From sequence record PQ561394: 42,423 bases of DNA, one strand, 5' to 3'. The translations under genes were made by a program, and so were the position numbers. Positions within the stretch are counted from its first letter, which is position 1. Each line of letters begins with the position of its first letter. This document shows positions 5,279 to 42,423 of this stretch, one piece after another. Source of the stretch: Escherichia phage Ec1-ASingh. The notes under the pieces were generated by a model. It worked only from the letters and a program-made list of their open reading frames with translations, was not told the origin of the DNA and made no database searches.

Positions 5279-7711
5279 GTGGATTTACTTGCAGAGCAGA
5301 TTCGACTTGAAGAAGAAGCGCGAGCCAGACACCGCGAGGGCTGGCTGGATAATATCAAAGAGGCGATGGCCAGTGGCCGCGCCGGGTCGGTGCCGTTGCT
5401 CCAGCGTATGATGGTTGAGGCTTATCCTCTGGTCGAAGCTGCGATGCAAGAAACCCTGAGCGAAACGACCCGTGGGTATGGTGCGCAGTACCGGACGTAC
5501 ATGCGTGAGATTGGCACCAAAGCGTGTGCCTCTCTCGCACTGAGCATGGCGGTGTCCGGTGCTGCGTCGGAGCAGGCGGTACTGAGTCTGCTCAAGAGCA
5601 TGGGCAAGGCACTGATGGCTGAGGTGGTGTATCTCCGGGCGAAGCAGACCGGGCCACAGCAGGCGGCGTACATGGAGCGCGTTAAGCAAGACGTGAAGAA
5701 GTCTCGCTCGAAGTCAGCGAACCACGTCTACAATAAAGCGCGTGCGTCGGCGGCGAACGTTGGGGTAGAGATTGATGTGCTGCCGCAGCGTGCGCTGATT
5801 ACCATCGGCAAGCTGATGATGAAGTGCGTCGAGCCAACTGGTCTGGTGTCCACGATTCGCGTCGGCGGCAACCAGCGCCAGCGCGGTACGGCACACTTCG
5901 CCCTGCATGAAGATGTGCTGGCTACGATGAACGACTGGCTGGACATGCCGCGTGCTGATGGCATGTGCTGCCCACCGCTGATTATCCCACCGAAGCAGAT
6001 TGCCCCGAACGGTCGCAGCGGCATGTGGCATTCCGATGGGCAGGCAGCGATGTACCGGGTCATGAGTCGCATGAACCACAAAGGGTATCGTGCATTGAAC
6101 GTTGACCCGACCCCCGTTATAGAGCCGTGTATGATGCTCAGCAGCGTTCCGTACCGAGTTAACCCAATGGTACTGGAGTTCCTGCGAACGAACCGTACAG
6201 GCGTTATGGGGCTGCCTGTGCCACCTCGTGAGCCTACACTTCCGTTCACCATCCCCGCTGGTGTGAGCTTTGCACAGTACATCAGCAAGTTCCCACCAGA
6301 GATGCAGCAGCAGATGGATGCCGAAGCTCATGAGTACAAGGTGAAGACTCGCTTGTATTACAATGAGTTGCGTAAGTTCACGTCGCAGATGCTGGCGTTG
6401 AATGGTGCAGTCAAAGAGGCAGAAAGGTATGCGCAGTACGATAGGATTTATCTCCCGACTTACGCCGATACGCGGGGCCGAATTTATTATTCTTCGACCC
6501 TTAACCCTCAGTCTATCGACGCAGTGCGAGCGCTGCTTGAACTTGCGGAACCAGTGGCTCTCGGAACTGAGGGGCTGTTCTGGCTCAAGGTTCATGTTGC
6601 GAATTGTTTCGGCTACGACGCAACAGACTTCGACGACCGGGCGGCGTGGACGGACAAGACACTCCCCCGACTACGTGAGGCGTGCCGTCTTCCAGAGGCA
6701 TTTGATTCGTTCTGGTCAGAAGCCGATAGCCCTATCAGCGCGTGGGCTGCCTCTGTTGAACTCATTCGCGCTATCGACTCAGGAAGTCCTGAGACTTATC
6801 CCTGCCGAGTGGTTACGCAATGGGACGCTACCTGTTCAGGATTACAGCACCTCAGTGCGATGCTACGAGATGAAGTTGGCGGTGCTGCTGTCAATCTTAT
6901 CAATAGCGTGGGAAGAAAAGCAGACATATATCTCAAGACGGCAGCAGCGGCGATGCAGGCTCTTGAAGATAGTGAAGCGCAGTCACCGACGCAGATGGGT
7001 ACGTGGCTTGTTTCAATCGGTATTGTCCGGGCGATGGCTAAGAAGCCAGTGATGACCTACGTGTACGGGGCAACCCGGCACGGTATGGTGGACTACTACT
7101 GCCTGTATCTACGAGAGAACCGGGTCAAGCTGCCGGACGGCAAGAGCCTGCTGGAGTGTGCGCAGTTCATCGCAGAGTTCATGTGGAATGCAATCCCTCG
7201 CGTTGTGCCGAAGGCGGCAGAGCTGATGGCATGGTTGCAGGCTATCGCGGTTGAAGCGGCAGCCAACGGCGAGTACGTGGAAATCATCGCACCGTCAGGG
7301 TTGCGGGTGGTTAATCTGTATCAAGCCAGCAAGGAGACGATGCTCAACAACATCAACCTCATGGGTATCCACAGCATTAAGCTGCGCGAGTATCTGGACA
7401 AGCCGGACGGCAGGAAGTGTGCCGCTGCGATTGCTCCGAATTTCGTACACGCCATGGATGCCAGCCACATGATGAAGGTGTTGTGGGAGATGTGGAATAA
7501 CGGGGTGTACATGGTGTCCATCCACGATTCGTTCGGGGTGGCGGCTGCACATGCCGGGTTACTCCACAAGGTCATTCGTGAAAAGTTCGTACAGATGTAT
7601 GAGCAACATGACCCAATTCAACAACTTGCTGTACGATACAATGCTGTTGCACCTGAACGGGGCAATCTGGATATCCAGCTTGTGAAACAATCAAGCAAGT
7701 TTTTCTGCTGA
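5279..7711 (+). CDS. single-subunit DNA-dependent RNA polymerase (T7-like)
   Basis: 810 aa; [26 protein letters not shown] matches T7 RNAP catalytic motif ([20 protein letters not shown]); HDSFG motif C present; GTG start after AAGGAG. Confidence 0.95.
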   Translation: [810 protein letters not shown]

Positions 7712-7739
7712 TAAATAGTGATATGTATCATTGACTTAA

Positions 7740-7760
7740 ATGAAAGTGTCTATAGTGATA
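7740..7760 (+). promoter_or_regulatory. conserved motif ATGAAAGTGTCTATAGTGATA (candidate phage-RNAP promoter for late genes)
   Basis: Located in the RNAP-structural intergenic region; followed by palindrome GTGATAGATATCAC; recurs at 8009, 35978 and inverted at 29428. Confidence 0.4.
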
Positions 7761-7821
7761 GATATCACGCTACCGGTAGCCCCGTCAGTGGCGGGGGTTG
7801 CTGCCACTAAGAGAGGATTGT

Positions 7822-8007
7822 ATGGGTAAAGAATCTCCACTTGAAAGAGTTCAGTTCACTAAAGCACAGTTAGCTCTACTGGAGAAGCACTTCGGTACAT
7901 GGTCTCAGGTAGGTAAGACAGTCACTCCCGACACTAACCTACCTCTGATTAACAGAGAGGCTGGTAAGCAAGACGTTCTGGATTTCATCAGAGAAAGAGT
8001 GATTTGA
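7822..8007 (+). CDS. hypothetical protein
   Basis: 61 aa; GAGAGGA RBS 4 nt upstream of ATG 7822. Confidence 0.45.
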   Translation: MGKESPLERVQFTKAQLALLEKHFGTWSQVGKTVTPDTNLPLINREAGKQDVLDFIRERVI

Positions 8008-8008
8008 A

Positions 8009-8428
8009 ATGAAAGTGTCTACTATGGGAAATACATCACACACGACGATGCCACTCGACATTCGCCGTGCTGTGGCCGAAGGCATTCAAGCTGAGCGGCC
8101 ATGGTCAGACCTATCTCCCGATGTGATTGTTGACAGCATGTACGAGGCCACCGCCTCCGGTTGCGTTGACGTTTACATCACTGCCGATGACGGCAGCCTC
8201 ATGGCTGTCGCTCACATCGGCAGGTTATTCGATATTCATGTGGGCGAGATGGTGGTCGTTATGGCCTCATACGTCTGGCCCCAGTACAGAAACCGTGGAG
8301 TGATGCGTGCCATCCTCCGTGTACTCAAAGACGTGGCCCGTTCAGCGGGTGTGCGTTGGTGCGGTTACTCCCATATGGTGCGGCCTTACGTTCAGGAGTA
8401 CCGCTTCATTGATTTGGAGAAACCGTAA
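8009..8428 (+). CDS. GNAT-like N-acetyltransferase (putative)
   Basis: 139 aa; segment VWPQYRNRGVMRAILRVLKDVARSAG resembles GNAT motif A (acetyl-CoA binding); start overlaps conserved ATGAAAGTGTCTA motif so true start may be ATG 8024. Confidence 0.45.
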   Translation: MKVSTMGNTSHTTMPLDIRRAVAEGIQAERPWSDLSPDVIVDSMYEATASGCVDVYITADDGSLMAVAHIGRLFDIHVGEMVVVMASYVWPQYRNRGVMRAILRVLKDVARSAGVRWCGYSHMVRPYVQEYRFIDLEKP

Positions 8429-12522: not shown

Positions 12523-12545
12523 GAAGCCCTTCTCTGAGGGGCTTC
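12523..12545 (+). terminator. stem-loop downstream of capsid gene (terminator-like; 10-bp stem with UUC/GAG closing pairs, triloop)
   Basis: GAAGCCC-TTC-tct-GAG-GGGCTTC; no clear U-tract, so may be a processing or stability element rather than an intrinsic terminator. Confidence 0.55.
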
Positions 12546-16305: not shown

Positions 16306-19002
16306 ATGGCTACTATGCGTGACCAGCGTGGCGCTAACCTTAATGCTGCGCAGCAGGGATTACCAAGTGTGCAGCAGGCGCAGACTCCGTTCAGTCTCGC
16401 AGGCCGCGATACTCGCATTGACACGTTTCCTACCGAGTCCATTCAGCGCGTACTGAACATGGCCAGCCAATTGGCTGGTCGTGTCACTGAGCGTGCGAAC
16501 GAGGAAGAATACCTCAAGGGTGCCAACGCCGCCGCGAGCGGCAAGGCTGTTGAGGATTTGGATTCGAACTGGCTCACTGCCCAGTTCCAGAAGGCTGGTT
16601 ACAACGACCAGTACAAGCGTATGCAGATGGCGAAAGTCGCCTCTGATATCTCGGCTAACATGCCGCAGTACGCGAAAATGAGTCCTGACGAGTTCTTGAA
16701 GGTGGTGGACGAGAAGACCACTGGCCTGTTCGAGAACACTGATGGCATGACGCTGAATGGTCGTAAGGCTCTGCTGGAGAACCAGCTCACGTTCAGCAAT
16801 ACCCTTATCCGTACGCAGGCTGCCCAGCATGGTAAGTATCTGGTTGAGCAGCGTGCGGCGATGTACAACTCGCAGGGTAACACTCTCGTTACTCTGGCGG
16901 CTCAGGCCAAAGCAACTGGTGACGGCGGCGCGTACGCTAACGCCACGGCTGCGACCATGGCATGGGCCAAGTCCATTCTGGCAGACGAGAAGCTGCCACT
17001 GGAAACTCGCCGGACTCAGGTAACGTCCATGATGGGGCTGATGCTCCAGCAGGATTTGCGTACTCCGGTCGAGACTGCTGTGAACTCAGGGCTGTTCAAC
17101 GAGCTGCCTGCGGAAGACTTGGCCAAGCTGCAAGGTCAGATTCGTGAATCCAAATCTCGTACCGAGGTTCAGGACAACATGGGTCTGCTGGCACAGAAAG
17201 GTCAACTCGACGCACGACAAGCAGTGTTCGGTGACGTTACGCCGGAGCAGTACACTCAGACGCTCCAGCAGATGGTGGACAACAAACTGATTAGCGCCAG
17301 CGGTTTTAGCTCGGCTATCGAGTCCTTCTACAAGGACTACGCCAAGCAAGCCAAGGCCAGCCAGCTCGGTCAGGCTTACGCTACCGGGAACCAGACGTAT
17401 ATGCTCCAGCAGGGCGCGAGCGAGCAGGATGGTGCTGACGCATTCATCAAGGCTCGCATGAAGCAACCGGGCGCGACGGCAAGCTCCGTGGCATTCGACC
17501 TGCTGCAAGTTGGCGCACAGACTGGTTTCCCTTCCGCGTATAAGTCTGCCGCGAAACTGATTGAACCATCCCTGTCGAACTTCGGCACCGTGGATGAAAT
17601 GAACCCTGATGCAGCCGCTACCGTAACCGGGCTGATTGACCGCGTAACCGTGGCCGAGAATCAGGGTGACAAGACCGCGTGGACTAAACTCCTGTCCGGT
17701 CTGTCCGAGGAAAACCAAGAGAAGATGGTGTACATGCGCGAGCAGATTAAGGCCGGGCGCACCATCGACCAAGCTGGTCAGGGTTACATCAAACAGCAGC
17801 AGGACTATGCTGGCTTAACCCCGGCACAGAAATCTCAAATTCTCACGCAGCGTCAATCTGACGTTAACAATGTGGTGAACTCCCTTGAGGCTCAGGGCTT
17901 CTTCTCCCGCACTTGGCAGGGGCTGGCTGGTCTGTTCTCAGACACTCAGCAGAACCTGTTCCAAGCTCGCGTCGCATCTGGTGACATTACTGCCGCGCAG
18001 GAAATGTCGGAGGTGGCTGCCGCGTACCGCGAGGAACTGCAAGCTGTTGTCCTCAAGAACCCTAACATCACGAAGGATGGTATGGAAGCTCTGGCCTCTG
18101 CGAAGCTGGCCAACCGTGTCCTCCGCGTTGGGGAAACCACATTCAGCCCCGGCTCTGTGCTTATCGCACCGAGAGGCCAAACTGTTCAGTCTATGCTCGG
18201 CTTGCCTGCTGACGTAGCCCCCGACCGTATTGGTCGCGCTATCGCCGCACTTGACCAGACCAAGGCACCAGAAGGCTTCGAGTCGTCCTACTCCTTTATG
18301 CCAGATGGCTCCCTGAACGTTCAGTTCTTCAACAAGCAAGGTGACGTTTCTCCGAACTCGGTACGCATTCTGCCGCAGGTCGTGCAGGAACGCATCCGTG
18401 AAGATGACCGTGCAGCGGCCACTGCCAATAACGAAGTCTATGGCGACGGGAAACTCTTTGTTGATAAGACCAGTAACGTGGGTATCCGCGTGAACGGCGT
18501 GAATACTGCTGGGGTAGACGAGCAGCGTATGCTTGTTGCCCGTGGCAAACTGATTGACTTCGAAGGTATCCGCAGCACCACTTACCGTGACAGCACTGGC
18601 GTGCAGACGAACGGGGTCGGTATCTCCGACCGCAGCCCGTACTTTGCTGAGGGTCAGGCTTCCGGTATGAAAGGCGGTACTGAATGGTCTCCGCGAACTA
18701 TCCACGATACGTTCGTGGCACACACCAACATGGTAGCCCGGCAGATGCCCGGCACTGCTGCTGCACTGGGGTGGAGTCGTGACAACGATGCCCAGTTCCA
18801 GTTCATGATGCAGATGGGTTATCAGGCAGGTTCAAGCTGGTACCGTACCGATGGTGCGTACAGCAAACTGGCTGATGCAATCCGTGTTGGCGACCGAGAG
18901 AAAGCTGTTCAGGCTCTGGCTGCGACCCCGGCTTACAAGCTGTCGCAGGACGAGCGTAAGCAGTATTACGTCCAAACTCTACTCGCAGGTATGCAGGAAT
19001 GA
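16306..19002 (+). CDS. internal virion protein (gp15-like position)
   Basis: 898 aa; synteny; 4-nt overlap with next gene. Confidence 0.6.
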   Translation: MATMRDQRGANLNAAQQGLPSVQQAQTPFSLAGRDTRIDTFPTESIQRVLNMASQLAGRVTERANEEEYLKGANAAASGKAVEDLDSNWLTAQFQKAGYNDQYKRMQMAKVASDISANMPQYAKMSPDEFLKVVDEKTTGLFENTDGMTLNGRKALLENQLTFSNTLIRTQAAQHGKYLVEQRAAMYNSQGNTLVTLAAQAKATGDGGAYANATAATMAWAKSILADEKLPLETRRTQVTSMMGLMLQQDLRTPVETAVNSGLFNELPAEDLAKLQGQIRESKSRTEVQDNMGLLAQKGQLDARQAVFGDVTPEQYTQTLQQMVDNKLISASGFSSAIESFYKDYAKQAKASQLGQAYATGNQTYMLQQGASEQDGADAFIKARMKQPGATASSVAFDLLQVGAQTGFPSAYKSAAKLIEPSLSNFGTVDEMNPDAAATVTGLIDRVTVAENQGDKTAWTKLLSGLSEENQEKMVYMREQIKAGRTIDQAGQGYIKQQQDYAGLTPAQKSQILTQRQSDVNNVVNSLEAQGFFSRTWQGLAGLFSDTQQNLFQARVASGDITAAQEMSEVAAAYREELQAVVLKNPNITKDGMEALASAKLANRVLRVGETTFSPGSVLIAPRGQTVQSMLGLPADVAPDRIGRAIAALDQTKAPEGFESSYSFMPDGSLNVQFFNKQGDVSPNSVRILPQVVQERIREDDRAAATANNEVYGDGKLFVDKTSNVGIRVNGVNTAGVDEQRMLVARGKLIDFEGIRSTTYRDSTGVQTNGVGISDRSPYFAEGQASGMKGGTEWSPRTIHDTFVAHTNMVARQMPGTAAALGWSRDNDAQFQFMMQMGYQAGSSWYRTDGAYSKLADAIRVGDREKAVQALAATPAYKLSQDERKQYYVQTLLAGMQE

Positions 19003-22000
19003 TTACACAAGAATCGCTCGACAAGTTCATGGCTCCCAAGCAGGGGGCCAATGCCCCTACGCTGGTGATTCCAGCTCCCGTAAAGACTGCTGACCTCAGC
19101 ACTCCGCTGCAAGATGCCACTCGTCAGGGTGCTGTCGAGCAGTTCGATAAGATGCAGGAACTGGAAGCGACTCCGATGGCCACGGCGTTGAGCGCTTCTG
19201 TGAAGAACTGGGATACCACTCAGCTCTTTGATGCCGCCTTCAACAAGCCTACCTTTCAGGCTGACCCGGACTTCAAGCCCAACGAGGCGTTGCAGCAGGT
19301 TCAGTTCCCGATTGGTGAAGACGACAGAACTTTCCTGTTTAAATCCAAATCTATGGACGAGTTCAACTGGCGTACGCAGCAGCTCCAAGAGATGCGCGAG
19401 CGTACCCAGTTGGCTCACACTGCTCCGGTGATGAACGCGGTTCTGCAATTCGCTGACCCGCTGTACCTCGCCACCGACCTGCTCTCGATGGGAGCAGGCA
19501 CTGCCCTGAAACTAGGTCGCCTCGGAACCTCCGCTGTCGGTGCAGCTTCAACTGCTGCCACTATGACAGCGGTGGGTAATGAAGCACGCCCAGTGTCTCA
19601 GAACGAAATCATCTTTGCGGCTGCCCTGCACGGGGCGGCCACCACTGCATTCTATCGTCCGGCTCCGGTACAGCGGTCGCTGGCCGACCTGTCGCCAGAG
19701 GAATTTGCAGCAGAGATGCAGCGTCGTAACGGCATTGACCCGAACAACCCTCCGCAGTTCGACCCGAACAACGCTATGTCACCACTGGCCATGTCCTTGG
19801 GCTTTGGTGGTCGTGGCGCTACTGTGGTTGACGAGGTGCCAGAATCCATCCGTGCCACTGCGCAGCGCGGTCTCGACCTCGCCCGTCGCGGTGAGCAGAC
19901 CAACCCTAAGCGTCCGTTCCTCGAATGGTCGCTGTTCAAATCATTCAGCCAACATTCTGACGAGGCCAGTGCTCTCGCCGGGCGACTGCTGGATGACCCA
20001 CTGAATCCGAACATGACCTCCGCTGCATCAATCCAGCGCGAGACTCAGGCTCGGTTTGGTGTGCTGCTGAACCAGTATGAGGACACCCTGCGTAACGCAC
20101 TGAACACTGACGGCTGGACTAACATCCGTCGCTTCCGTGACCCAGTGGGCTATCGCCGGGCGCAGCAGGAGTTCGAAGCTGCTGTCCGTTTCGAGCTGGA
20201 CAAGCGCATGATTGACAAAGAGTTCCGTGGTGCCAATGCTAACGTGGCCGCTGCCGCCGACCGACTGGGGGAATACTCCCGCGCCGTGGGCCGCGAGCTG
20301 GAAGCGAAGGGCATGGTGGAACCGGGCTTCGTAGACAAGAACCCGTACTACTACCCGCGCCGGATGAACGTGACCAAGATTGAGCAGGCTGAGCAGTTGC
20401 TCGGCAAGAAGCCATTCATGAAGCAGATGACGACCGCTGTGCAGCGCGGTATCGGTACTGACCGTCCGACTGCCAACGTCATTGCCCATGCCATGGTTGA
20501 GCGTGCTCGTCGTAAGGGTTACGGTATTGACAACTCCGGTATGATTATCAACAAGGAAGGTCGCGATGAATTGCTCGAAATCATTGAGAACGCGAAAGGT
20601 CTCGACGAGGCTGCCAAGGCCCGTGCTTCCGCACTCCTTCGTGAGTCTGGCTCGGACGCTGGCCGACCGCCGATGCTCAAGAGCCGCATCAACATCGACA
20701 TGATGCACCAGCTCGGCCCTAACTTGCAGGTGCGTGACCTGTTCGACGACAGCATCACCAGTATGATGGACAGCTATAACCGCCGCATTACCGGGCGACT
20801 GGCTCTGCATGAAGCTGGACTGGGTACTGATGCTGAACGCGCCGCCGCTCGCGAGGCGCTGGCCAAATCCATCCCGGATAGCACGGCACGCCGTAAGGCT
20901 CTCGACCAATACGACAACATCATGGCTTACTACCAAGGTGCTCCTGTTGGTGAGGAAATGCCGGAGTTCATGCGCCAGCTTTCAGCGCTGACTCAGGCCA
21001 CTGGTCTGGCTGCATCTGGCCTGTGGCAGTTGGTAGAATACGGCACGATGATGCAACGTTTCGGGGCAGTCAATACGTTTCGCGCCATGATGCGTACAAT
21101 TCCCGAAGCACGCGCACTATTTAAGCAAATGAGGGTGTCTACTAAGGAAGGTCGTCAATTGGCTCTGGATGCCGAGGAAGCGCTGACTGCGGCTGTAGCG
21201 AGTGATATTCGTATGCGCCCAATCATGCAGCACTATGACGACATGTTCTCTGCGGATAAGTCTCCGTGGGTCATGCGTATGGAACACCTGCGCGATGCCA
21301 CGATGTTCATCAACATGCAGAAATACATCCACTTCCACCAGACTCGAACCAATGCTGCGCTCGTGATGCAGACGCTGCGTAAGGCAGCCGAAGGTGATGC
21401 CAAGGCTATTGCAGCCATGAAAACCTACGGTGCCAATGACGTGCTGCTGGCTGACATTCGCAAGCAGGTTGGTACTCATGGCACCAAGCCTGATGCTTGG
21501 GATGAAGGGGTGTTCAATCGCTCTCGCATTGTCATGATGAATGCCATGGATGACGCTATTGTTCGCGCTCGCGTAGGTGAGCTGCCTGCATTTGCTGAGT
21601 TCAGTACGCTGGGTAAGTTCCTGTTTACGTTCCGTCGATTCGTCGCGGCAACGCACAACAAGACTCTGGTTGGTACTTGGAATCGTGAGGGTGCCCGTGG
21701 GCTGGCAACGCTGATGGCGTACCAGTATCCGCTGGCGATGATGGCCACTGCTGCCAATAACGTGATTTCCGGTAAGGCATTCTCTGACCCGGATACCATG
21801 GCTCCGAACAAACTGGCTGGTCAGGCACTGAACTATCTCGGTGCTATCGGCTTTGCCTCTGAGTTCACTGGAGTTCTGACCGGGCAGCAGCGCAGCTTTG
21901 GTGCGCCGGGCCTGTTGTTCCTCGACCGCCTGTACGGTGTTGCTGGTGCCACCTCTGCTACGGCAGGTAGTCTGGCCACTGGTGATTTTGACCAAGCCGG

Positions 22001-22103
22001 ACATAACGCTCGCAAGGCAGCCGGGAACATCATTCAGGCTCTCCCACTAATCTCCATTGTGCCGGGTGTCCGAGCACTCAACGAAGCAGTTAAGGGTGAA
22101 TAA
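18999..22103 (+). CDS. internal virion / ejection protein (gp16-like position)
   Basis: 1034 aa; synteny; ATGA overlap with upstream gene. Confidence 0.6.
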   Translation: MITQESLDKFMAPKQGANAPTLVIPAPVKTADLSTPLQDATRQGAVEQFDKMQELEATPMATALSASVKNWDTTQLFDAAFNKPTFQADPDFKPNEALQQVQFPIGEDDRTFLFKSKSMDEFNWRTQQLQEMRERTQLAHTAPVMNAVLQFADPLYLATDLLSMGAGTALKLGRLGTSAVGAASTAATMTAVGNEARPVSQNEIIFAAALHGAATTAFYRPAPVQRSLADLSPEEFAAEMQRRNGIDPNNPPQFDPNNAMSPLAMSLGFGGRGATVVDEVPESIRATAQRGLDLARRGEQTNPKRPFLEWSLFKSFSQHSDEASALAGRLLDDPLNPNMTSAASIQRETQARFGVLLNQYEDTLRNALNTDGWTNIRRFRDPVGYRRAQQEFEAAVRFELDKRMIDKEFRGANANVAAAADRLGEYSRAVGRELEAKGMVEPGFVDKNPYYYPRRMNVTKIEQAEQLLGKKPFMKQMTTAVQRGIGTDRPTANVIAHAMVERARRKGYGIDNSGMIINKEGRDELLEIIENAKGLDEAAKARASALLRESGSDAGRPPMLKSRINIDMMHQLGPNLQVRDLFDDSITSMMDSYNRRITGRLALHEAGLGTDAERAAAREALAKSIPDSTARRKALDQYDNIMAYYQGAPVGEEMPEFMRQLSALTQATGLAASGLWQLVEYGTMMQRFGAVNTFRAMMRTIPEARALFKQMRVSTKEGRQLALDAEEALTAAVASDIRMRPIMQHYDDMFSADKSPWVMRMEHLRDATMFINMQKYIHFHQTRTNAALVMQTLRKAAEGDAKAIAAMKTYGANDVLLADIRKQVGTHGTKPDAWDEGVFNRSRIVMMNAMDDAIVRARVGELPAFAEFSTLGKFLFTFRRFVAATHNKTLVGTWNREGARGLATLMAYQYPLAMMATAANNVISGKAFSDPDTMAPNKLAGQALNYLGAIGFASEFTGVLTGQQRSFGAPGLLFLDRLYGVAGATSATAGSLATGDFDQAGHNARKAAGNIIQALPLISIVPGVRALNEAVKGE

Positions 22104-27460: not shown

Positions 27461-27949
27461 ATGAAACTGTCTCGGCTAATGGCCGGGGCAGTCCTATCAG
27501 CGTCGCTGACTCTGACGGGCTGCTCCGCAACTAGCGCACTGTCTGCTGTAACTTCGGCTGTATCTCCCAACAAGCCGGAACTGACGGCTCAGGTAGGTGC
27601 AGAAAATACGAAGCAAGGTATCGGTGTGACTGCGAAACAGTCCGATGAAACCGAAGTCGGTGATGTATCTGGCAACGCGAAAGTGGATACCGCTAAGCAG
27701 GGTTCGAATGGCACATCCATCAAGGACGTCTCAGGAGGCTCTGTAAACGCTTCTAAGCAGGGGTCGCAAATGACCCAAGGAAACGTACAGGCTCGCACGG
27801 TTATCGTCTCTCAGAGCGACCCACGCAGCCTCCTATGGGCTTTCGGCATGGGCCTTACGTGTATCCTTGGTTTAGTCATGTGGTTTGTACCATCTCCGTG
27901 GAAAAGGAAAGTGAAAGATGACGGAAGCAAAGAAGGAGCCATCTCCTAA
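27461..27949 (+). CDS. lipoprotein with C-terminal TM helix (unimolecular-spanin-like architecture)
   Basis: Signal peptide with lipobox LTLTGC at N-terminus; Gly/Ser/Thr/Gln-rich middle; C-terminal hydrophobic helix LLWAFGMGLTCILGLVMWFV. Confidence 0.5.
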   Translation: MKLSRLMAGAVLSASLTLTGCSATSALSAVTSAVSPNKPELTAQVGAENTKQGIGVTAKQSDETEVGDVSGNAKVDTAKQGSNGTSIKDVSGGSVNASKQGSQMTQGNVQARTVIVSQSDPRSLLWAFGMGLTCILGLVMWFVPSPWKRKVKDDGSKEGAIS

Positions 27950-28301
27950 CATCCACTCGCGTATGGGTGCAGTGGAGGCTCGTATGCAGACCGTAGAACT
28001 TCGACTTGACAAGCACGAGGTACAAATCGCCACTCTTGAAAAGGGCGATGCTGCAATGATTTCCAAGCTGGCTGAGAACGACCTCCGCTGGCAGACGGTT
28101 CAACAGCAGCTCCTTGTGGTTGAGCAAATTCAGGACATTCAAAAGACTATGAGCCATATCGGTAAGTTGTTTACGGCGGCGGCTCACGCTGTCAAATGGT
28201 GTCTCTTAACTGCATCCCTGTGTAGCGGTATCTACTTAGCAATCAAGGCTGGTGACTTAAGCTCACTGCAAGCCTTCATCACTACACTACTGGGGATGTA
28301 A
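27918..28301 (+). CDS. coiled-coil protein with single C-terminal TM helix (holin candidate, non-canonical)
   Basis: 127 aa; N-terminal heptad-like region; C-terminal hydrophobic segment VKWCLLTASLCSGIYLAI; located immediately upstream of endolysin. Confidence 0.4.
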   Translation: MTEAKKEPSPNIHSRMGAVEARMQTVELRLDKHEVQIATLEKGDAAMISKLAENDLRWQTVQQQLLVVEQIQDIQKTMSHIGKLFTAAAHAVKWCLLTASLCSGIYLAIKAGDLSSLQAFITTLLGM

Positions 28302-28837
28302 TGACTAACTTTGAAATCTGTATGCGGTTCACCGGGCTGGCAGAAGGTGGTTATACCAAGCTGCCCGGCGATACCGGAGGGGAAACGAATCATGGAATTA
28401 GCGACGCTCGTGATGGCAAACTGGATGGCCGAGCTTGTGGTGTCCCTACTGGGCTTGGCGGCACTATTTGCGTGCCTATCAAAGACCTCACCAAAGCACA
28501 AGCCGAAGCAATCTATCGACGGGATTACTACGCCCCCATCCGAGGTGACGAGCTTCACCCTGCGATTGCATGTGCCGTGTTTGACTACGGTGTCAACTCC
28601 GGTGTCTCCCGTGCGGCGAAAGCTCTACAGCGGGTATGCGGCGTTGCACAAGACGGGATTATTGGCCCTGCTACCGTGGCAGCAGCCAAACGTCTGGAAC
28701 CTCACTCCGCAGCAGCAGCCATCTGTGACCTTCGTATTGCGTTCCTAAAGGCTTCTACAGCCCCGACAGTGGTTCGCTATAGGGATGCCTTGGTTGCTCG
28801 TGCAAAACGCTGTAGCGCTTACTGTGCGACGCTGTAG
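28301..28837 (+). CDS. endolysin, GH108-like N-terminal domain plus peptidoglycan-binding domain
   Basis: N-terminal FTGLAEGGYTKLPGDTGGETNHGI (GH108 EGGY signature) and FDYGVNSGVSRAAKALQRVCGVAQDGIIGPATVAAAKRL (PG_binding_3-like); no N-terminal SAR/TM segment. Confidence 0.75.
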   Translation: MTNFEICMRFTGLAEGGYTKLPGDTGGETNHGISDARDGKLDGRACGVPTGLGGTICVPIKDLTKAQAEAIYRRDYYAPIRGDELHPAIACAVFDYGVNSGVSRAAKALQRVCGVAQDGIIGPATVAAAKRLEPHSAAAAICDLRIAFLKASTAPTVVRYRDALVARAKRCSAYCATL

Positions 28838-29040
28838 GGGTATCCAAAAGCTGAGGCAATGAACAGGCCGTGGGTGCAATACCCCGGCTTGAAAATTGCA
28901 CGTTTATGCTTGCCCCTCCCTCGACCCAAATGACCGCGCGTGCCCCCATAGCGTGTGCGCGGATTAGCCTCGCGACGTGCGCGATATTTGCTCGCGTGCG
29001 CTGCGCGGCGCGTCAAGAGGATTGCCTGCGTGCGGTATAG

Positions 29041-29400
29041 CTCGTGCGTGTCGCGTTCCATCGTCTGCCGTGTGGCGTGCTGTGCGCTGTCCTGCTGGCT
29101 GTGCTGTGCGGTGCTGTCCTATGGGGACGCTCTGCGCTGGCTGTGCTGTGCTGTGTGGTGCGCGTGGTCGTGCGGGTATCTGTCTCTTTTCGTCGTGCGG
29201 CGTGGTGCTGTGTGGTGGTGTGGTGGCGGTGGTGCTGCCGTGGTGCTGTCCTGTCTGCTGGTCTACTCTCTGCGCCGCCAGCTCTGCGCGTCGTGCTCTG
29301 CTACCTGCTGTTACTGTCCTACTGCGTTCACTGTCTGCCGCCTGTCATCCTGTCGGATTCCATCCGTTGACGTTCCGCGCTCGCTTGTTTCGGCTGCGCC
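29041..29400. other. adenine-depleted low-complexity tract (putative terminal-repeat / genome-end region)
   Basis: About 14 A in 360 nt on + strand (~4%), G/T/C-rich with CTG/GTG/GCG iterations; ORFs called here are composition artefacts. Confidence 0.6.
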
Positions 29401-29570
29401 GCGCTCGCTCTGCGTATCTAGCGATACTATATCACTATAGACACTTTCATAATTATCTATTGATATCAGTAACTTATGACCTATCTGATAACGGTATTCT
29501 ATCCAGTGTTGTGATTATCTAATCAAACTTTAATCCTAATGATTACAGTAACTTATCACTTTTCTTGAAA
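29401..29570. other. AT-rich block with GATA-type palindromes and T7-like CACTATAG core
   Basis: TATCACTATAGACACTTTCAT at 29428-29449; TGATATCA and related palindromes at 29454-29500. Confidence 0.5.
29438..29450 (-). promoter_or_regulatory. inverted copy of conserved ATGAAAGTGTCTA motif (candidate phage-RNAP promoter element)
   Basis: Reverse complement of 29428-29448 is identical to 7740-7760 (21/21). Confidence 0.4.
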
Positions 29571-29577
29571 ATAATAC

Positions 29578-29608
29578 TTGCAAACTGTTTTGGTTATGTG
29601 CTGTAATT
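29578..29608 (+). promoter_or_regulatory. sigma70-like early promoter P1 (weaker)
   Basis: TTGCAA ... TGcTGTAAT with 19-bp spacer; extended -10 TG present. Confidence 0.35.
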
Positions 29609-29767
29609 CATCACGTCGAAAGGCACTAGCCAAGTAGACAGTTTAACGCGGTTGTGTCGCAACATGGGCATGACGGGGCATAAGTCCGATATACTGTGCA
29701 GCCAAACAGACGGCATGAGTGACAAGCCAACCGCATTAAACATTGCTCTTTAACAATCTGGAGTGTA

Positions 29768-29796
29768 TTGACAAGGCAAGCTCACTATGCTGTAAT
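29768..29796 (+). promoter_or_regulatory. sigma70-like early promoter P2
   Basis: TTGACA - 17 bp - TGTAAT with extended TG (TGcTGTAAT). Confidence 0.55.
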
Positions 29797-29905
29797 GCTT
29801 CCACGTCAGCCAGACAAGCCGAATAGTGATGGATAAACACGTTAACACCCGCGCAGGCTAACTGGTACGGTTTAATTAACTCTGAATGGGCGCTGATTAA
29901 ATCGG

Positions 29906-29934
29906 TTGACAGGATGAAACGAGTATGCTGTAAT
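29906..29934 (+). promoter_or_regulatory. sigma70-like early promoter P3
   Basis: TTGACA - 17 bp - TGTAAT with extended TG (TGcTGTAAT). Confidence 0.55.
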
Positions 29935-29985
29935 ACGCTCCAGATTGACAGGGCAGCAAGCCAGTCAGTCAGAAGTAAAAAGTAG

Positions 29986-30014
29986 TTGACAAGCTGAATA
30001 CACTGTGTTGTAAT
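29986..30014 (+). promoter_or_regulatory. sigma70-like early promoter P4
   Basis: TTGACA - 17 bp - TGTAAT with upstream TG (TGtTGTAAT). Confidence 0.55.
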
Positions 30015-30487
30015 CAGCACCGAGTTGAAAGGTTGCAAAACAACCTGCTCTGAGTGAACGTAAACAGGCCACGTAGTGTCTCGGCCTCATGGGTATCCGG
30101 CGCAGCTAGGAACTGGTGAGGGCACCGCCGAAAGGCAATAGGGGTAGCGCCCGGTGCAAGGTAACAGAGAAGCGCGATAGACGCAGCGCAGTATCAGCAC
30201 AATACCGAACGTCTTATAAGCATTGTAGACAGTAGGGGACGTAGCAAAACACACTCGACTTTGAGCTGGCGCGTAGCAGGTTGCGCAGGGTATGACTGAG
30301 TGTTGAGCGGAGTCGCTGAAAGATACTTAAACCCGATGATATATGCCGGGTCATGCGAAATGGGCGGGGCGATTTTTCAGGGTAGTGAATCCGACAAGCC
30401 AATCAATGCCACTGAGTGCAGACTGTACGGCGCGTCACAATGGGTTCACTATCCACCTGAAAATAGCCAACAACTGGAGAAATAACT

Positions 30488-30877
30488 ATGTACCGTATCT
30501 ATGCAAGCGCATACCGCCAGAACAATGCTGAGTGTGTTAATCTGGCGCTTCATTGCAAGGCACTGCGAACGGTGCAGGATATGTTCGGAGTGATTCCGGT
30601 CACACTGACAGGCAAGTTCGACAATGCGTATGAGTTAAGCATGGTCTTTCCTGTCGATGGAATCTACGAAATCAGACAGGCTGTTAAGCTGTTCTGTAAA
30701 GCCTTTGAACAGGACTGCATCATGGTAGTGACCGATGACAATGATGCAATCTTCATGGATTCACCGTATCCGGGCAAGCCTGCTGGCAAGCTGGTCAGCA
30801 AAACAGGCGAGCAGATGGAAGCCGGGCAGCATACCGCTTGGACTTATGACGGTGAACTGTTTTGGGTAGTGGAGTAA
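30488..30877 (+). CDS. early hypothetical protein (first early gene)
   Basis: 129 aa; GGAGAAA RBS; first ORF downstream of the promoter cluster. Confidence 0.6.
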   Translation: MYRIYASAYRQNNAECVNLALHCKALRTVQDMFGVIPVTLTGKFDNAYELSMVFPVDGIYEIRQAVKLFCKAFEQDCIMVVTDDNDAIFMDSPYPGKPAGKLVSKTGEQMEAGQHTAWTYDGELFWVVE

Positions 30878-33622: not shown

Positions 33623-33958
33623 ATGGCGCTGCATCCGGTCAAGGTATTCCGTGGGCCTGACATTACGGATGGGCAAGACGTGGCGGTACTGCTGTACCGC
33701 CTGCCCGATGGTCAGGAAGGGCTGGTCGTTATCGACCAGATTGAAATCTTAGGTCAGCAGATGCTGACGAGCGAGGCGACCGACGAGCAAATCATCGACC
33801 GCTTCAAAGCGTACGCCGGACGCAGGCCATTCATCATTGACCTGCTGAACGAGCAACATCATAGCGCCGCGCCGCTGGCTGTCCAGACGTGGCTCAAGAT
33901 ACTGACTCCCATCTACGAAGGGCAGATGTATCTCTTTGGTATCGACAACGAGGTGTAA
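33623..33958 (+). CDS. early hypothetical protein
   Basis: 111 aa; GAGGT RBS. Confidence 0.55.
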   Translation: MALHPVKVFRGPDITDGQDVAVLLYRLPDGQEGLVVIDQIEILGQQMLTSEATDEQIIDRFKAYAGRRPFIIDLLNEQHHSAAPLAVQTWLKILTPIYEGQMYLFGIDNEV

Positions 33959-35941: not shown

Positions 35942-35977
35942 TCATCTACTCATGCCTGTTATTATTTAGCAGGCATT

Positions 35978-35990
35978 ATGAAGGTGTCTA
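35978..35990 (+). promoter_or_regulatory. conserved motif ATGAAGGTGTCTA (third + strand copy), preceded by hairpin
   Basis: Follows hairpin ATGCCTG-ttattatttag-CAGGCAT (35952-35976); 23 nt upstream of the 36014 start codon. Confidence 0.35.
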
Positions 35991-36013
35991 TATTGGCCAA
36001 CGTGAGGTGAACT

Positions 36014-36217
36014 ATGTTCAAAGTAATATTGTTGTTCCTGCTTCTGGTAATTATTTGGGGAGCATTATGGGTGGGTCTTGCATCATTGGTGCTTATCCCT
36101 GCTGTCGGTGAGTCAGCCACTTCAACACTGGGCACGCTGCTCGGTATGCTGGTGGGCTGGGGTCTGATGCAGTTGAGCCTGAGTGTAGGCCAGAGCCGGA
36201 GGTGGATTAAATGGTGA
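36014..36217 (+). CDS. small two-TM membrane protein
   Basis: 67 aa; GAGGTG RBS; two hydrophobic helices. Confidence 0.5.
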   Translation: MFKVILLFLLLVIIWGALWVGLASLVLIPAVGESATSTLGTLLGMLVGWGLMQLSLSVGQSRRWIKW

Positions 36218-39961: not shown

Positions 39962-42423
39962 ATGGCAATTCGAGCACAGGTGATTGACGTTGAGACCGAG
40001 AACCACGAGTGGTATGGGGAGCTGGCATCGCCGCGCTGCCCGGATAACTACGTGGTGATGCAGGGCCAGCGTGACTGTGTGCTGACCAAGGATGGCTGGG
40101 TGTTCTACGAGCGCGAGGAATACCGGTACAGTTCGAGGGAGGATTGGTTGCAGAACAAGAGCCTGCACCTGCATCCCGACACGAACATTCTGGTAGCCCA
40201 CAACGCGCCGTATGAATTGAGTTGGTGGTTCGAGCATTACGGTGACGAGTTCATCGCCTTCCTCAAACGAGGTGGCCGTGTATTCTGTACGGCGTATGCT
40301 GAGTATCTGCTGACGCACCAACAATCCCAGTACCCATCCTTGAACGAGACAGCACCGAAGTATGGTGGTACTCACAAGGTGGATGCAGTCAAGGCAATGT
40401 GGGAGTCGGGATACCTGACCAGCCAGATTGACCCTGAGCTGCTGAGCGAATATCTGTCCGGGCCGTCCGGCGATATAGAGAACACGACCAAGCTGTTCGT
40501 TGGTCAGTGGGCTGAGCTGACGAAGCAGGGCATGTTGCCAATGGCACTGACCCGGTTCGAAGGTATGCTCATGTGGGCGTACATGATGCACGCTGGTCTG
40601 CACGTTGACCGCGAGGTTGCCGAGCGCAACCGCCGTGAGTTGCAGGATGCAATCAGTGGGCTGACTGATACGCTGCTGAGTTACCTGCCAGCCGACATGC
40701 CACAGGAAGCGCGTGACCAGTTCAAGTTCACGTCAGCTTACCACATGAGTGCGTTCGTGTTCGGCGGCGTGATGAAGTACAAGGCGCGAGTCGAGCGCCG
40801 GGATGGGGATGGCAATCTCATTTACGTCAAGGTGGATGCACCACTGTTCAAGCGTGGCAAGGACAAGTGGGTCAAGCATACCAACGAGTGCGAGTGGGAT
40901 GCCGAGACCGGGCTATGGTATGACCCGGTTGAGAAGGTACACCAGACCATCTACACCAGTGGGAAGAACAAGGGTGCGCCCAAGTTCGAGAAGCTGGCAA
41001 CGGATGAAGTGGATACCAAGTGGGGTGAGGTGCTGTTCCGAATGCCGGGCCTCCTGCGTGTGCAGGACAAACGAGCGAAGGAGATTGCAGACAACCTCGA
41101 ATGGGAAGACCCGAAGCGACCGGGTGAATACCTGCGGCGCACGGGTGACTGGGTTGGTAAGCGCAGGCTTGCCGATGGCAGTCCGGTATTCAGTACGGCG
41201 GGTGAGGTGCTGGACATTCTGGCAGCTCGTAAGATTCCCGGCGTGGTGGAGATTGCCGACCGAGCCAAGGCACAGAAAGACCTCGGCACTTACTACCTGA
41301 GCGAGACGTTCGATGAAGAAGGGAACGTGACTGGCCAGTCGGGGATGATGCAGTTCATCCAGCCGGACAGTATCGTACACCACACCATCAACATGACCGC
41401 GACGGAGACGACGCGCCTATCATCGGCGCGACCTAACAGTCAGAACTTGCCACGTAAAGGCACGAGTAAAGTTAAGCAGATGTTCACCTCCCGCTTTGGT
41501 GAGGGTGGCCGCATCGTTGAGGCTGACTACTCGGCACTGGAAGTGGTGGGGCTGGCAGGGTTCAGCAAGGATAAGAACCTGATTCGTGCATTGCTCGACG
41601 GTATCGACATGCACTGTATGCGTCTGTCAGCTCAGCTCAACGAGCCATACGAGGACGTGCTTAAGAAGTGCAAGGATGAATCCCATCCTGACCATGCACG
41701 ATACAGTCAGATGCGTACTGACATTAAGCCGAAGGCGTTCTCATACCAGTATGGTGCAACAGCGCGAGGCATTGCGTACTCGACTGGTTGCTCTGAGGAA
41801 GAAGCTCAAGCGTTCATCGACAACGAGAAGGGTCTGTTCCCGGAAGTTGAAGAATGGTTCGACTCGGTTATCTTCCCAGCCGTAGAGAAAAGTGGACAGA
41901 GCAATGTGTTCAAGGAGCAGGACGAGAACGGAAGATGGCAGGTGTATCGCCGTGGTCACTTCCGGTCGCCGGGTGGAACTTGTTATTCATTCCGTCAGTA
42001 CGAGAAATGGAACAAGGCGGCGCGTGCTCACCTGATGGAATACAAACCAACTCAGATGCGTAACTATCCGATTCAGGGTGAGACCGCATTTTGGGTACAG
42101 GGAATCGGTGGCCTGCTGTTCCGCTGGCTGCTATCGAACGACTTCTTTGGTGGGCGTGTGGTTCCCATCAACCAAGTGCATGACGCATTCTATTTCGACA
42201 TTGCGCCTGACTGCCCTCACGAGTTCTTCGTTGGACTCAAGGCAATCATGGAGAGCATCCCGGAATACTATAACCACGTATGGCCAGAGTATAACCTGAC
42301 AGTGCCGTTCCCGGCAGAGGTGGAAGCAGGGCCAAGCATGTACGAGAAGCACCACGTAGAGACGACAGCCGATGAAGTGCTGGAGTTTAAGAGACAATTC
42401 CTGACGAGTAAGGGTATCGCAAT
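39962..42423 (+). CDS. DNA polymerase, family A (T7 gp5-like); 3' end runs off the window
   Basis: Open frame from ATG 39962 to window end; motifs DYSALEV (motif A), KAFSYQYGA (motif B), VHDAFYFD (motif C); appears to terminate via ATA-TGA spanning the window end into positions 1-4. Confidence 0.9.
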   Translation, partial: MAIRAQVIDVETENHEWYGELASPRCPDNYVVMQGQRDCVLTKDGWVFYEREEYRYSSREDWLQNKSLHLHPDTNILVAHNAPYELSWWFEHYGDEFIAFLKRGGRVFCTAYAEYLLTHQQSQYPSLNETAPKYGGTHKVDAVKAMWESGYLTSQIDPELLSEYLSGPSGDIENTTKLFVGQWAELTKQGMLPMALTRFEGMLMWAYMMHAGLHVDREVAERNRRELQDAISGLTDTLLSYLPADMPQEARDQFKFTSAYHMSAFVFGGVMKYKARVERRDGDGNLIYVKVDAPLFKRGKDKWVKHTNECEWDAETGLWYDPVEKVHQTIYTSGKNKGAPKFEKLATDEVDTKWGEVLFRMPGLLRVQDKRAKEIADNLEWEDPKRPGEYLRRTGDWVGKRRLADGSPVFSTAGEVLDILAARKIPGVVEIADRAKAQKDLGTYYLSETFDEEGNVTGQSGMMQFIQPDSIVHHTINMTATETTRLSSARPNSQNLPRKGTSKVKQMFTSRFGEGGRIVEADYSALEVVGLAGFSKDKNLIRALLDGIDMHCMRLSAQLNEPYEDVLKKCKDESHPDHARYSQMRTDIKPKAFSYQYGATARGIAYSTGCSEEEAQAFIDNEKGLFPEVEEWFDSVIFPAVEKSGQSNVFKEQDENGRWQVYRRGHFRSPGGTCYSFRQYEKWNKAARAHLMEYKPTQMRNYPIQGETAFWVQGIGGLLFRWLLSNDFFGGRVVPINQVHDAFYFDIAPDCPHEFFVGLKAIMESIPEYYNHVWPEYNLTVPFPAEVEAGPSMYEKHHVETTADEVLEFKRQFLTSKGIA

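Follow-up and report, generated by a model that had tools for sequence, protein, structure and literature searches.

In the 42,423-nt sequence of Escherichia phage Ec1-ASingh (record PQ561394; this whole stretch is called the window below), a short motif at positions 7740–7760, just downstream of an RNA polymerase gene, recurs at distant places in the genome. This raises the questions of what signal the motif carries, on which strand it is read, and by which protein. A preliminary description made from the sequence had proposed that it is a promoter for the phage's own RNA polymerase. Our computational analysis supports this proposal, and we consider it highly probable that the single-subunit (T7-type) RNA polymerase encoded by the phage uses the motif as its cognate promoter. 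This reading is supported by the synteny of the motif among related genomes, by a concerted change of its core that tracks a hot spot of differences in the specificity loop of the polymerase, and by a layout like that of the mapped promoters of phage LUZ19 and, in part, of phage KP34.

The 13-mer ATGAARGTGTCTA was found as exact matches at 7740–7752, 8009–8021, and 35978–35990 on the plus strand and at 29438–29450 on the minus strand, and had no match in any of 100 dinucleotide-preserving shuffles of the window. The claim that four copies of the 13-mer are beyond chance was thus borne out. The exact 21-nt reverse complement TATCACTATAGACACTTTCAT also exists, although it lies at 29430–29450, 2 nt off the position first given (29428–29448). 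Alignment of the copies indicated that the conserved element is the 18-mer ATGARRGTGTCTAYWNWG, which runs to an invariant G at position 18. With at most two mismatches, the 18-mer had five matches in the window, compared with 0.1 expected. The fifth match, ATGAGGGTGTCTACTAAG, is located at 21129–21146 (+) within the gene at 18999–22103, so that the earlier count of four holds for the 13-mer but not for the element as a whole. At up to two mismatches, no weaker copies of the 18-mer were found in the whole window beyond these five, and matches to the 13-mer with three mismatches occurred only at chance level. The element is about 18–20 bp long, with the consensus WW-ATGARRG-TGT-CTA-YWNW-G on the strand reading ATGAA. 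Another candidate copy at 27461 (ATGAAACTGTCTC) was rejected, as it showed no co-variation in the relatives.

All genes in the window are on the plus strand. Four of the five copies are co-directional with them and lie ahead of transcription units, and one is inverted. Copy 1 (ATGAAAGTGTCTATAGTG, 7740–7757, +) is located 29 nt past the stop codon of the RNA polymerase gene, and its predicted start, G7757, is 65 nt before the ATG at 7822. As originally described, it thus lies between the polymerase gene, which stops at 7711, and the structural block, whose next gene begins at 7822. Copy 2 (ATGAAAGTGTCTACTATG followed by GGAAA, 8009–8026, +), with a predicted start at G8026, overlaps the annotated start codon of the gene at 8009–8428. 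Copy 3 (ATGAAGGTGTCTATATTG, 35978–35995, +) precedes the DNA-metabolism block. Its predicted start, G35995, is 19 nt before the ATG at 36014, and the downstream genes encode primase, helicase, and DNA polymerase and extend through the RNA polymerase gene. This copy is adjoined upstream by a hairpin with a 10-bp stem (35952–35976, +; −17.2 kcal/mol, z = −3.3), which is probably the end of the early transcription unit. Its placement just past a hairpin, with the end of the 13-mer 23 nt before the ATG at 36014, agrees with the preliminary description. Copy 5 (ATGAGGGTGTCTACTAAG, 21129–21146, +) is in frame within the internal virion protein gene (18999–22103), about 960 nt before the tailspike, terminase, and lysis genes. 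The inverted copy, copy 4 (ATGAAAGTGTCTATAGTG on the minus strand, 29433–29450), is predicted to start at 29433 and to fire toward the left genome end. It is flanked on one side by the terminal-repeat/GC-rich non-coding region and on the other by the AT-rich region that holds the early host-type promoters. Its proximity to a genome end was also upheld; judged by homology with the annotated ends of phage J8-65, it is about 510–530 bp inside the left end.

The phage belongs to Bonnellvirus (J8-65-like Autographiviridae) and has a phiKMV-type gene order. The 3.7-kb and 1.5-kb stretches compared were 100% identical to Enterobacter phage BHUENT7, whose record is unannotated, and the RNA polymerase region was 93–99% identical to that of Escherichia phages megetsur, mellemsur, HHU8, LF82-23, aldrigsur, and altidsur. 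Eleven related genomes were scanned, which together with the window made 12 genomes. A search at equivalent positions in related genomes had been suggested as a check on the promoter proposal, and the motif was found syntenically in the 11 relatives. In nearly all 12 genomes, it occupied five syntenic places, with four copies forward and one inverted each time; the exceptions were J8-65 and smaasur. These places are past the early-region hairpin and before the primase/helicase/DNA polymerase block, just behind the stop codon of the RNA polymerase gene, at the start codon of the second gene after it, within the internal virion protein gene, and, in inverted orientation, between the terminal repeat and the early promoters. 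The site equivalent to copy 1 was present with a lineage-specific core in 11 of 11 relatives, and an inverted, syntenic counterpart of copy 4 was likewise present in all 11. In J8-65, whose ends are annotated, the inverted copy is at 531–548 (−), 272 nt past the 259-bp terminal repeat at 1–259. The core of copy 5 co-varied in Kc261, usur, RZ4, ROV85, Lidtsur, and LIMEzero, and this site was absent from J8-65 and smaasur. These two phages carry at the syntenic position (32980 in J8-65; 5006 in the reverse complement of MN850625 for smaasur) the sequence ATGCGAGCATCTAC, which is unlike their own GTAACTG-type motif.

The upstream block ATGAARG and the downstream WG were constant among the genomes, and the core between them varied by lineage, with five alleles in the 12 genomes. 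The core was GTGTC in the window, megetsur, HHU8, and aldrigsur; GTGAC in RZ4 and ROV85; GCTAC in Kc261 and usur; GTAAC in J8-65, smaasur, and Lidtsur; and GCAAGC in LIMEzero. Within a genome, the core was the same at all sites except in J8-65, which has one GTATC copy, and Lidtsur, which has two GTATC copies and one GTGAC-like copy. The concerted change persisted in the copies that lie in coding sequence. The sites syntenic with copy 2 co-varied, and because the promoter allele changes there, codons 3 and 4 of the protein of gene 8009–8428 change to VS, VT, or AT, giving the N-terminus MK-VS, MK-VT, or MK-AT according to the allele. Similarly, the virion protein at copy 5 reads FKQMR-VS/VT/AT-TKEGRQ, in a peptide that is otherwise invariant. 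Parallel change at dispersed sites implies that one trans-acting reader serves all of them and that its specificity has shifted between lineages.

LIMEzero (FR751545), whose polymerase is 70% identical to that of the window, provides a comparison within the same frame. Its motif, ATRAAGG-CAA-GCAC-TAWG, has the same length and frame as that of the window, whereas its core is GCAAGC instead of GTGTCT. The record labels two sites (7294–7313 and 20330–20349) as a "putative phage specific promoter"; they are syntenic with copies 3 and 1, respectively. The former also lies past a terminator, which is annotated at the place equivalent to the hairpin at 35952–35976. Five sites were found in this genome; the additional, unannotated copies (ATGARGGCAAGCACTAAGG) are at 20741–20758 (+), 33867–33884 (+), and 638–655 (−), the last being the inverted left-end copy. 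At two LIMEzero sites, ATG is replaced by ATA or TTA.

The latter observation bears on the proposal that the motif is not a DNA signal but opens a conserved short peptide (MKVS...) or acts as an element of translation. In its favour, the copies in the window all begin with ATG, and copy 2 coincides with the annotated start codon of gene 8009–8428. However, the open reading frames (ORFs) opened by copies 1, 3, and 4 have only 29, 10, and 7 codons, respectively, are unrelated past the motif, and have no upstream Shine-Dalgarno sequence. Copy 5 is internal to an ORF of 1034 amino acids, and the two LIMEzero sites mentioned above have no ATG at all. Moreover, conservation stops at a fixed DNA position whatever the reading frame, and the concerted change is one of DNA sequence, seen equally in coding copies and in non-coding ones, including the inverted copy. 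A role as an MKVS leader peptide, which had been offered as an alternative, was accordingly rejected, and we regard any peptide or translational explanation as extremely improbable.

The strongest candidate for the trans-acting reader is encoded immediately upstream of copy 1. The gene at 5279–7711 (+), directly before the structural genes, encodes a single-subunit T7-type RNA polymerase of 810 amino acids. In a phmmer search, it matched T7 RNA polymerase structures with E = 2e-57, with residues 6–781 aligned and the IHDSFG catalytic motif present, and the equivalent gene is annotated as RNA polymerase in the relatives. We infer that this enzyme reads the motif. The polymerase was mapped onto T7 RNA polymerase through the phmmer alignment, so the correspondence of individual residues is approximate; R746, N748, R756, and Q758 of T7 corresponded to N691, N693, K701, and R703, respectively. 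Codons 687–699 (7337–7375, +) aligned with T7 residues 742–754, which lie in the specificity loop. In the T7 structures, specificity loops of this family read the promoter at about −10 to −8. If G18 of the motif is +1, the variable core bases would fall at the same positions, −10 to −8, and contacts between particular bases and loop residues may be presumed.

Residues 687–699 were a hot spot of differences between promoter groups. The loop was KETMLNNINLMGIHSIKLRE in the group of the window (core GTGTC), KEIALNNINLMGIHGIKLRE in RZ4 (GTGAC), KESPM-HLHLMGVHQIKLRE in Kc261 and usur (GCTAC), KETTM-GIKLMGVHAIKLRE in J8-65 (GTAAC), and RETSM-RLNLLGVHAIQLRE in LIMEzero (GCAAGC). Between GTGTC and GCTAC phages, 9 of the 13 loop residues differed, compared with 50 of 797 residues elsewhere (Fisher p = 1.8e-8).

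The concerted change by itself shows that the sites share a trans-acting reader, not which one, so that another phage protein (a replication initiator, the small terminase subunit, or a transcription factor) might bind the motif as a replication or packaging element. One copy does lie beside the terminal repeat and an AT-rich region. On the other hand, the hot spot expected of a T7-type promoter reader was found in the specificity loop of the polymerase, four co-directional copies stand ahead of gene blocks in the layout of the mapped LUZ19 and KP34 promoters, and packaging or origin sites are normally single rather than distributed genome-wide. Binding by a protein other than the polymerase therefore appears improbable, and a pure packaging or replication element, as the preliminary description had also considered, leaves the co-directional copies ahead of gene blocks unexplained. 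The inverted copy may have a secondary role at the DNA level. A host sigma-70 promoter was also considered for copy 1, which is preceded by TTGACT at 7733. This candidate was rejected: the hexamer is wrongly spaced from any −10-like hexamer, the other copies have no TTGAC, and nothing was reported there by the promoter scan.

With the polymerase promoter as the preferred reading, strand and start site can be considered in turn. On sequence grounds, ATGAA marks the active strand; its direction agrees with that of the genes at four of the five sites. The opposite strand had drawn attention to itself by CACTATAG, a core carried by T7-family promoters, for which KpnP and Ro45Iw offer a comparison, and under this alternative, TATCACTATAGACAC would be a T7/SP6-like promoter and the ATGAA reading incidental. 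Copies 1 and 4 do carry this core on their opposite strand, as the preliminary description stated, but it occurs in only two of the five copies, and two matches per 42 kb were reached by 13 of 100 shuffles. A core of this type common to all copies and oriented with the genes was not found, the two occurrences being on the strand opposite the motif. In addition, four of the five copies would fire against the genes, the sequence upstream of the core varies between copies, and the conserved, co-varying block would be placed past the start, outside the region in which T7-type polymerases read specificity. A promoter on the opposite strand is thus very improbable, and the presence of the T7/SP6-like core, at chance level, does not indicate a promoter role.

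On the ATGAA strand, G at position 18 is the sole position among positions 14–19 with a purine at every site in every genome, and conservation ends right after it. From this conservation pattern, the invariant G at position 18 is the probable transcription start. Copy 2 continues from there as GGGAAA, which resembles GGGAGA of T7.

Several points weigh against the interpretation given here. In KP34, transcription starts 14 nt past the A of ATG; the same spacing would place +1 at position 15, and because of this, the start at position 18 is probable but unproven. The GTGTC and GTGAC groups differ by three loop substitutions, a difference that is not significant alone (p = 0.08). Because the promoter groups coincide with clades, the covariation of core and loop is partly confounded by shared ancestry. 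The phiKMV- and KP34-type enzymes with mapped promoters share only about 32% identity with the polymerase of the window. Copy 2 covers a start codon and copy 5 is intragenic, both unusual for promoters, although a promoter in the structural region has also been mapped in LUZ19 and KP34. Finally, no paper on Bonnellvirus promoters or transcription was found in the searchable literature, and the papers on J8-65, Kc261, and the Danish wastewater phages make no mention of promoters.

The layout of the copies can be compared with that of promoters mapped in related systems. In LUZ19, ONT-cappable-seq mapped four phage-specific promoters (P001 and P007–P009) that share a 20-bp motif: two directly past the polymerase gene, one in the structural region, and the antisense P001 at the left end, whose transcripts extend as far as the last structural genes (Putzeys et al. 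2024, PMC10914365). This arrangement is kept in 15 other Phikmvvirus species (PMC10914365). The window resembles LUZ19 in having few promoters of about 20 bp, a single-subunit polymerase gene at the end of the replication block, and near-perfect positional conservation across the genus. The two sites past the polymerase gene, the one in the structural region, and the antisense one at the left end all have equivalents, copy 4 being the positional counterpart of P001. In contrast, the promoter sequence of LUZ19 (GgtTATGTCACacACAnnGG) is otherwise unrelated, the polymerases are about 32% identical, and the window has an extra promoter before the replication genes; its promoters are predicted, whereas those of LUZ19 are mapped.

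The experimentally defined strong promoter of KP34, T(A/G)ATGTTACAGGAGTA, is found directly past the polymerase gene and in the structural region, as well as at nt 475–490; its mapped start is a G (Lu et al. 2019, PMC6834552). It shares with the window these three kinds of site, the 5′ ATG element, and the G at the start. It differs in that it is shorter, its core is unrelated, its left-end copy is forward, and the polymerase is about 31–32% identical. The left-end copy of KP34, which is experimentally active, lies between the terminal repeat (1–216) and an annotated host promoter (931–959). Like the motif of the window, to which they are otherwise unrelated, the promoters of LUZ19, KP34, and Cronobacter phage CD23823 have (T/A)ATG at their 5′ end.

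T7 (structures 1cez and 1qln) is similar to the window in the enzyme fold, the 17-nt upstream element, the A/T-rich −4 to −1 region, the G at +1, and the lineage-specific bases around −8 to −10, which vary together with the specificity loop. The motif has no sequence identity to TAATACGACTCACTATAG of T7, however, and T7 has 17–18 promoters compared with five. Unlike in T7, the polymerase gene of the window lies late in the replication block rather than in the early region, and the left-end promoter is inverted.

These comparisons allow a working model of the promoter set. By analogy with T7, duplex binding would involve the ATGAARG block (−17 to −11), and the specificity loop would read the lineage-variable triplet (−10 to −8); the A/T-rich YWNW (−4 to −1) would be melted, with the start at G18. 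The host polymerase would transcribe from the four early promoters to the hairpin at 35952–35976. Once made, the phage polymerase would start past this hairpin at 35995 and transcribe the replication genes and its own gene, giving a positive feedback. The starts at 7757 and 8026 would serve the structural genes. A second hairpin, past the major capsid gene (12523–12545, +; −25.5 kcal/mol, z = −3.7), may attenuate this transcription; it is probably a late attenuator or terminator, and the LIMEzero record annotates a terminator past its capsid gene. The start at 21146 would boost the tailspike, terminase, and lysis genes.

The inverted promoter would fire leftward from 29433 through about 510 nt of non-coding DNA to the genome end, and in concatemers, its transcription would cross the repeat into the lysis genes of the preceding unit. 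Its most likely role would be to oppose late read-through into the early region from the neighbouring genome unit; alternatively, it might help open the adjacent AT-rich DNA for replication. The strength of the individual copies and the function of the inverted one are presumptive. For LUZ19, the authors suggested that P001 impedes the read-through of transcription into the early genes when the DNA is circularised (PMC10914365). This anti-read-through role is a published hypothesis for LUZ19, not a result, which also counts against assigning it firmly to copy 4.

It is possible, though doubtful, that only the forward copies act as promoters in the ordinary sense and that the inverted copy acts mainly at the DNA level, either as one half of a divergent pair with the early promoters that opens the spacer for replication through the negative supercoiling left behind each polymerase, or by taking the polymerase across the terminal repeat for concatemer processing. 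In T7, the phage promoter phiOL likewise follows the left terminal repeat and precedes the early host promoters, and T7 promoters combined with an AT-rich region serve as origins. Across polymerases only about 30% identical, a left-end promoter recurs in Bonnellvirus, LIMEzero, and LUZ19, where it is inverted, and in KP34, where it is forward; its position is thus kept but its orientation is not, which argues against a purely anti-read-through role. Copy 4 abuts a 125-bp AT-rich spacer that contains repeats (29451–29575), and downstream of it, no conserved gene and no Rfam RNA was found. On the other hand, the only published interpretation of such a promoter is transcriptional interference (PMC10914365), and the orientation is strictly kept within Bonnellvirus and within Phikmvvirus and may matter. 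Copy 4 does adjoin AT-rich DNA (GC about 27–33%), as expected of a T7-type origin, but this DNA is upstream of the promoter, not downstream. That the left-end phage promoter is in general an element of this kind and not a gene-expression signal, working through divergent unwinding of the spacer as an origin or through delivery of the polymerase across the repeat for concatemer processing, is rather unlikely on this evidence.

The sequence of the Bonnellvirus motif is specific to the genus, and the architecture in which it is used is already documented in phiKMV-like phages. To judge from the searchable literature, the present set is the first full predicted promoter set for Bonnellvirus, and it completes that of LIMEzero (five sites compared with the two annotated). 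The results suggest that the LUZ19 layout, including the antisense left-end promoter, reaches an enterobacterial lineage whose polymerase is about 32% identical. Within the genus, natural pairs of polymerase and promoter exist in which the polymerases are about 90% identical and the promoters are 1–3 bases apart (GTGTC, GTGAC, and GCTAC). The differences within these pairs lie largely in the 13-residue loop, which makes them compact material for studying or engineering orthogonal promoter specificity. This series of closely related specificities and the inverted left-end copy are the chief remaining interest of the system. For annotation, two genes hold predicted promoters within their coding sequence.

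The left end itself was delimited by homology. From the annotated 259-bp repeats of J8-65, a direct terminal repeat is placed at 28921–29175; it is present once in the collapsed assembly. The putative left physical end is at about 28921 (TCGACCC...), and the right boundary of the repeat, about 29175, is approximate. Rightward of the repeat follow a GC-rich non-coding stretch, the inverted copy, the AT-rich spacer, four early promoters, and the first gene at 30488. The early promoters, read from the sequence, are tandem, host-type elements (TTGACA/TTGCAA-N17-18-TGTAAT) at 29578–29607, 29768–29796, 29906–29934, and 29986–30014 on the plus strand. The consensus scan reported none of the four because it demands A at position 2 of the −10 hexamer; host promoters are annotated at the place equivalent to 29578–30014 in the LIMEzero record. 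The promoter and terminator scan of 28200–30600 on both strands reported no terminator-like site on the minus strand. Neither the leader that follows copy 1 nor the RNA that follows the inverted copy folded better than shuffled controls, and an Rfam scan of the whole window matched no family.

The spacer at 29451–29575, between the inverted copy and the first early host-type promoter, contains two copies of a repeat of about 30 nt (CTAWTGATWWCAGTAACTTAT...) at 29457–29486 and 29536–29565, which are 80% identical to each other and kept in relatives. Candidate functions are those of an upstream promoter element, of a site where the DNA unwinds, or of one where a protein binds. The plus strand at 28975–29350, a stretch spanning the putative terminal repeat and the non-coding DNA to its right, is nearly free of A, with an AT skew of −0.75 to −0.89, a GC content of about 64%, and GTGCTGTG-like repeats. 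In Kc261, HHU8, and Lidtsur, the long ORFs of this region, at 28955–29440 and 28977–29522 of the window, are recorded as hypothetical proteins. They probably arise as artefacts of base composition, and the ORFs annotated in the terminal non-coding region of relatives are likewise probably spurious.

At the right boundary of the terminal repeat, 29174–29190 (GGGTATCTGTCTCTTTT) has ATCTGTC followed by a T-rich run and is invariant in megetsur, RZ4, and Kc261. Its orientation suits action on rightward, late read-through transcription, and ATCTGTC is one base off a signal reported as strictly sequence-specific for T7 polymerase. Just before the repeat, a conserved block at 28850–28920 (GGGGCATTGAAAGCTNNGACATTGAACAGGCG...CCCGGCTTGAAAATTG), also found at 40656 in J8-65 and 40836 in the relative L010, is loosely motif-like (TTGAAAGCT) without co-varying with the promoter allele. 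A role in packaging or in the recognition of the genome end is possible. Finally, the segment ATAGTGATA(T/G)(G/A)TATCA, which comprises the 3′ part of copy 1 and the first transcribed bases, occurs at 7752–7767, a second time 37 nt upstream at 7715–7730, and again at the inverted copy (29421–29439); in RZ4, these three copies are identical 15-mers. The segment contains the dyad GTGATA..TATCAC and might be an operator or a 5′ stem.

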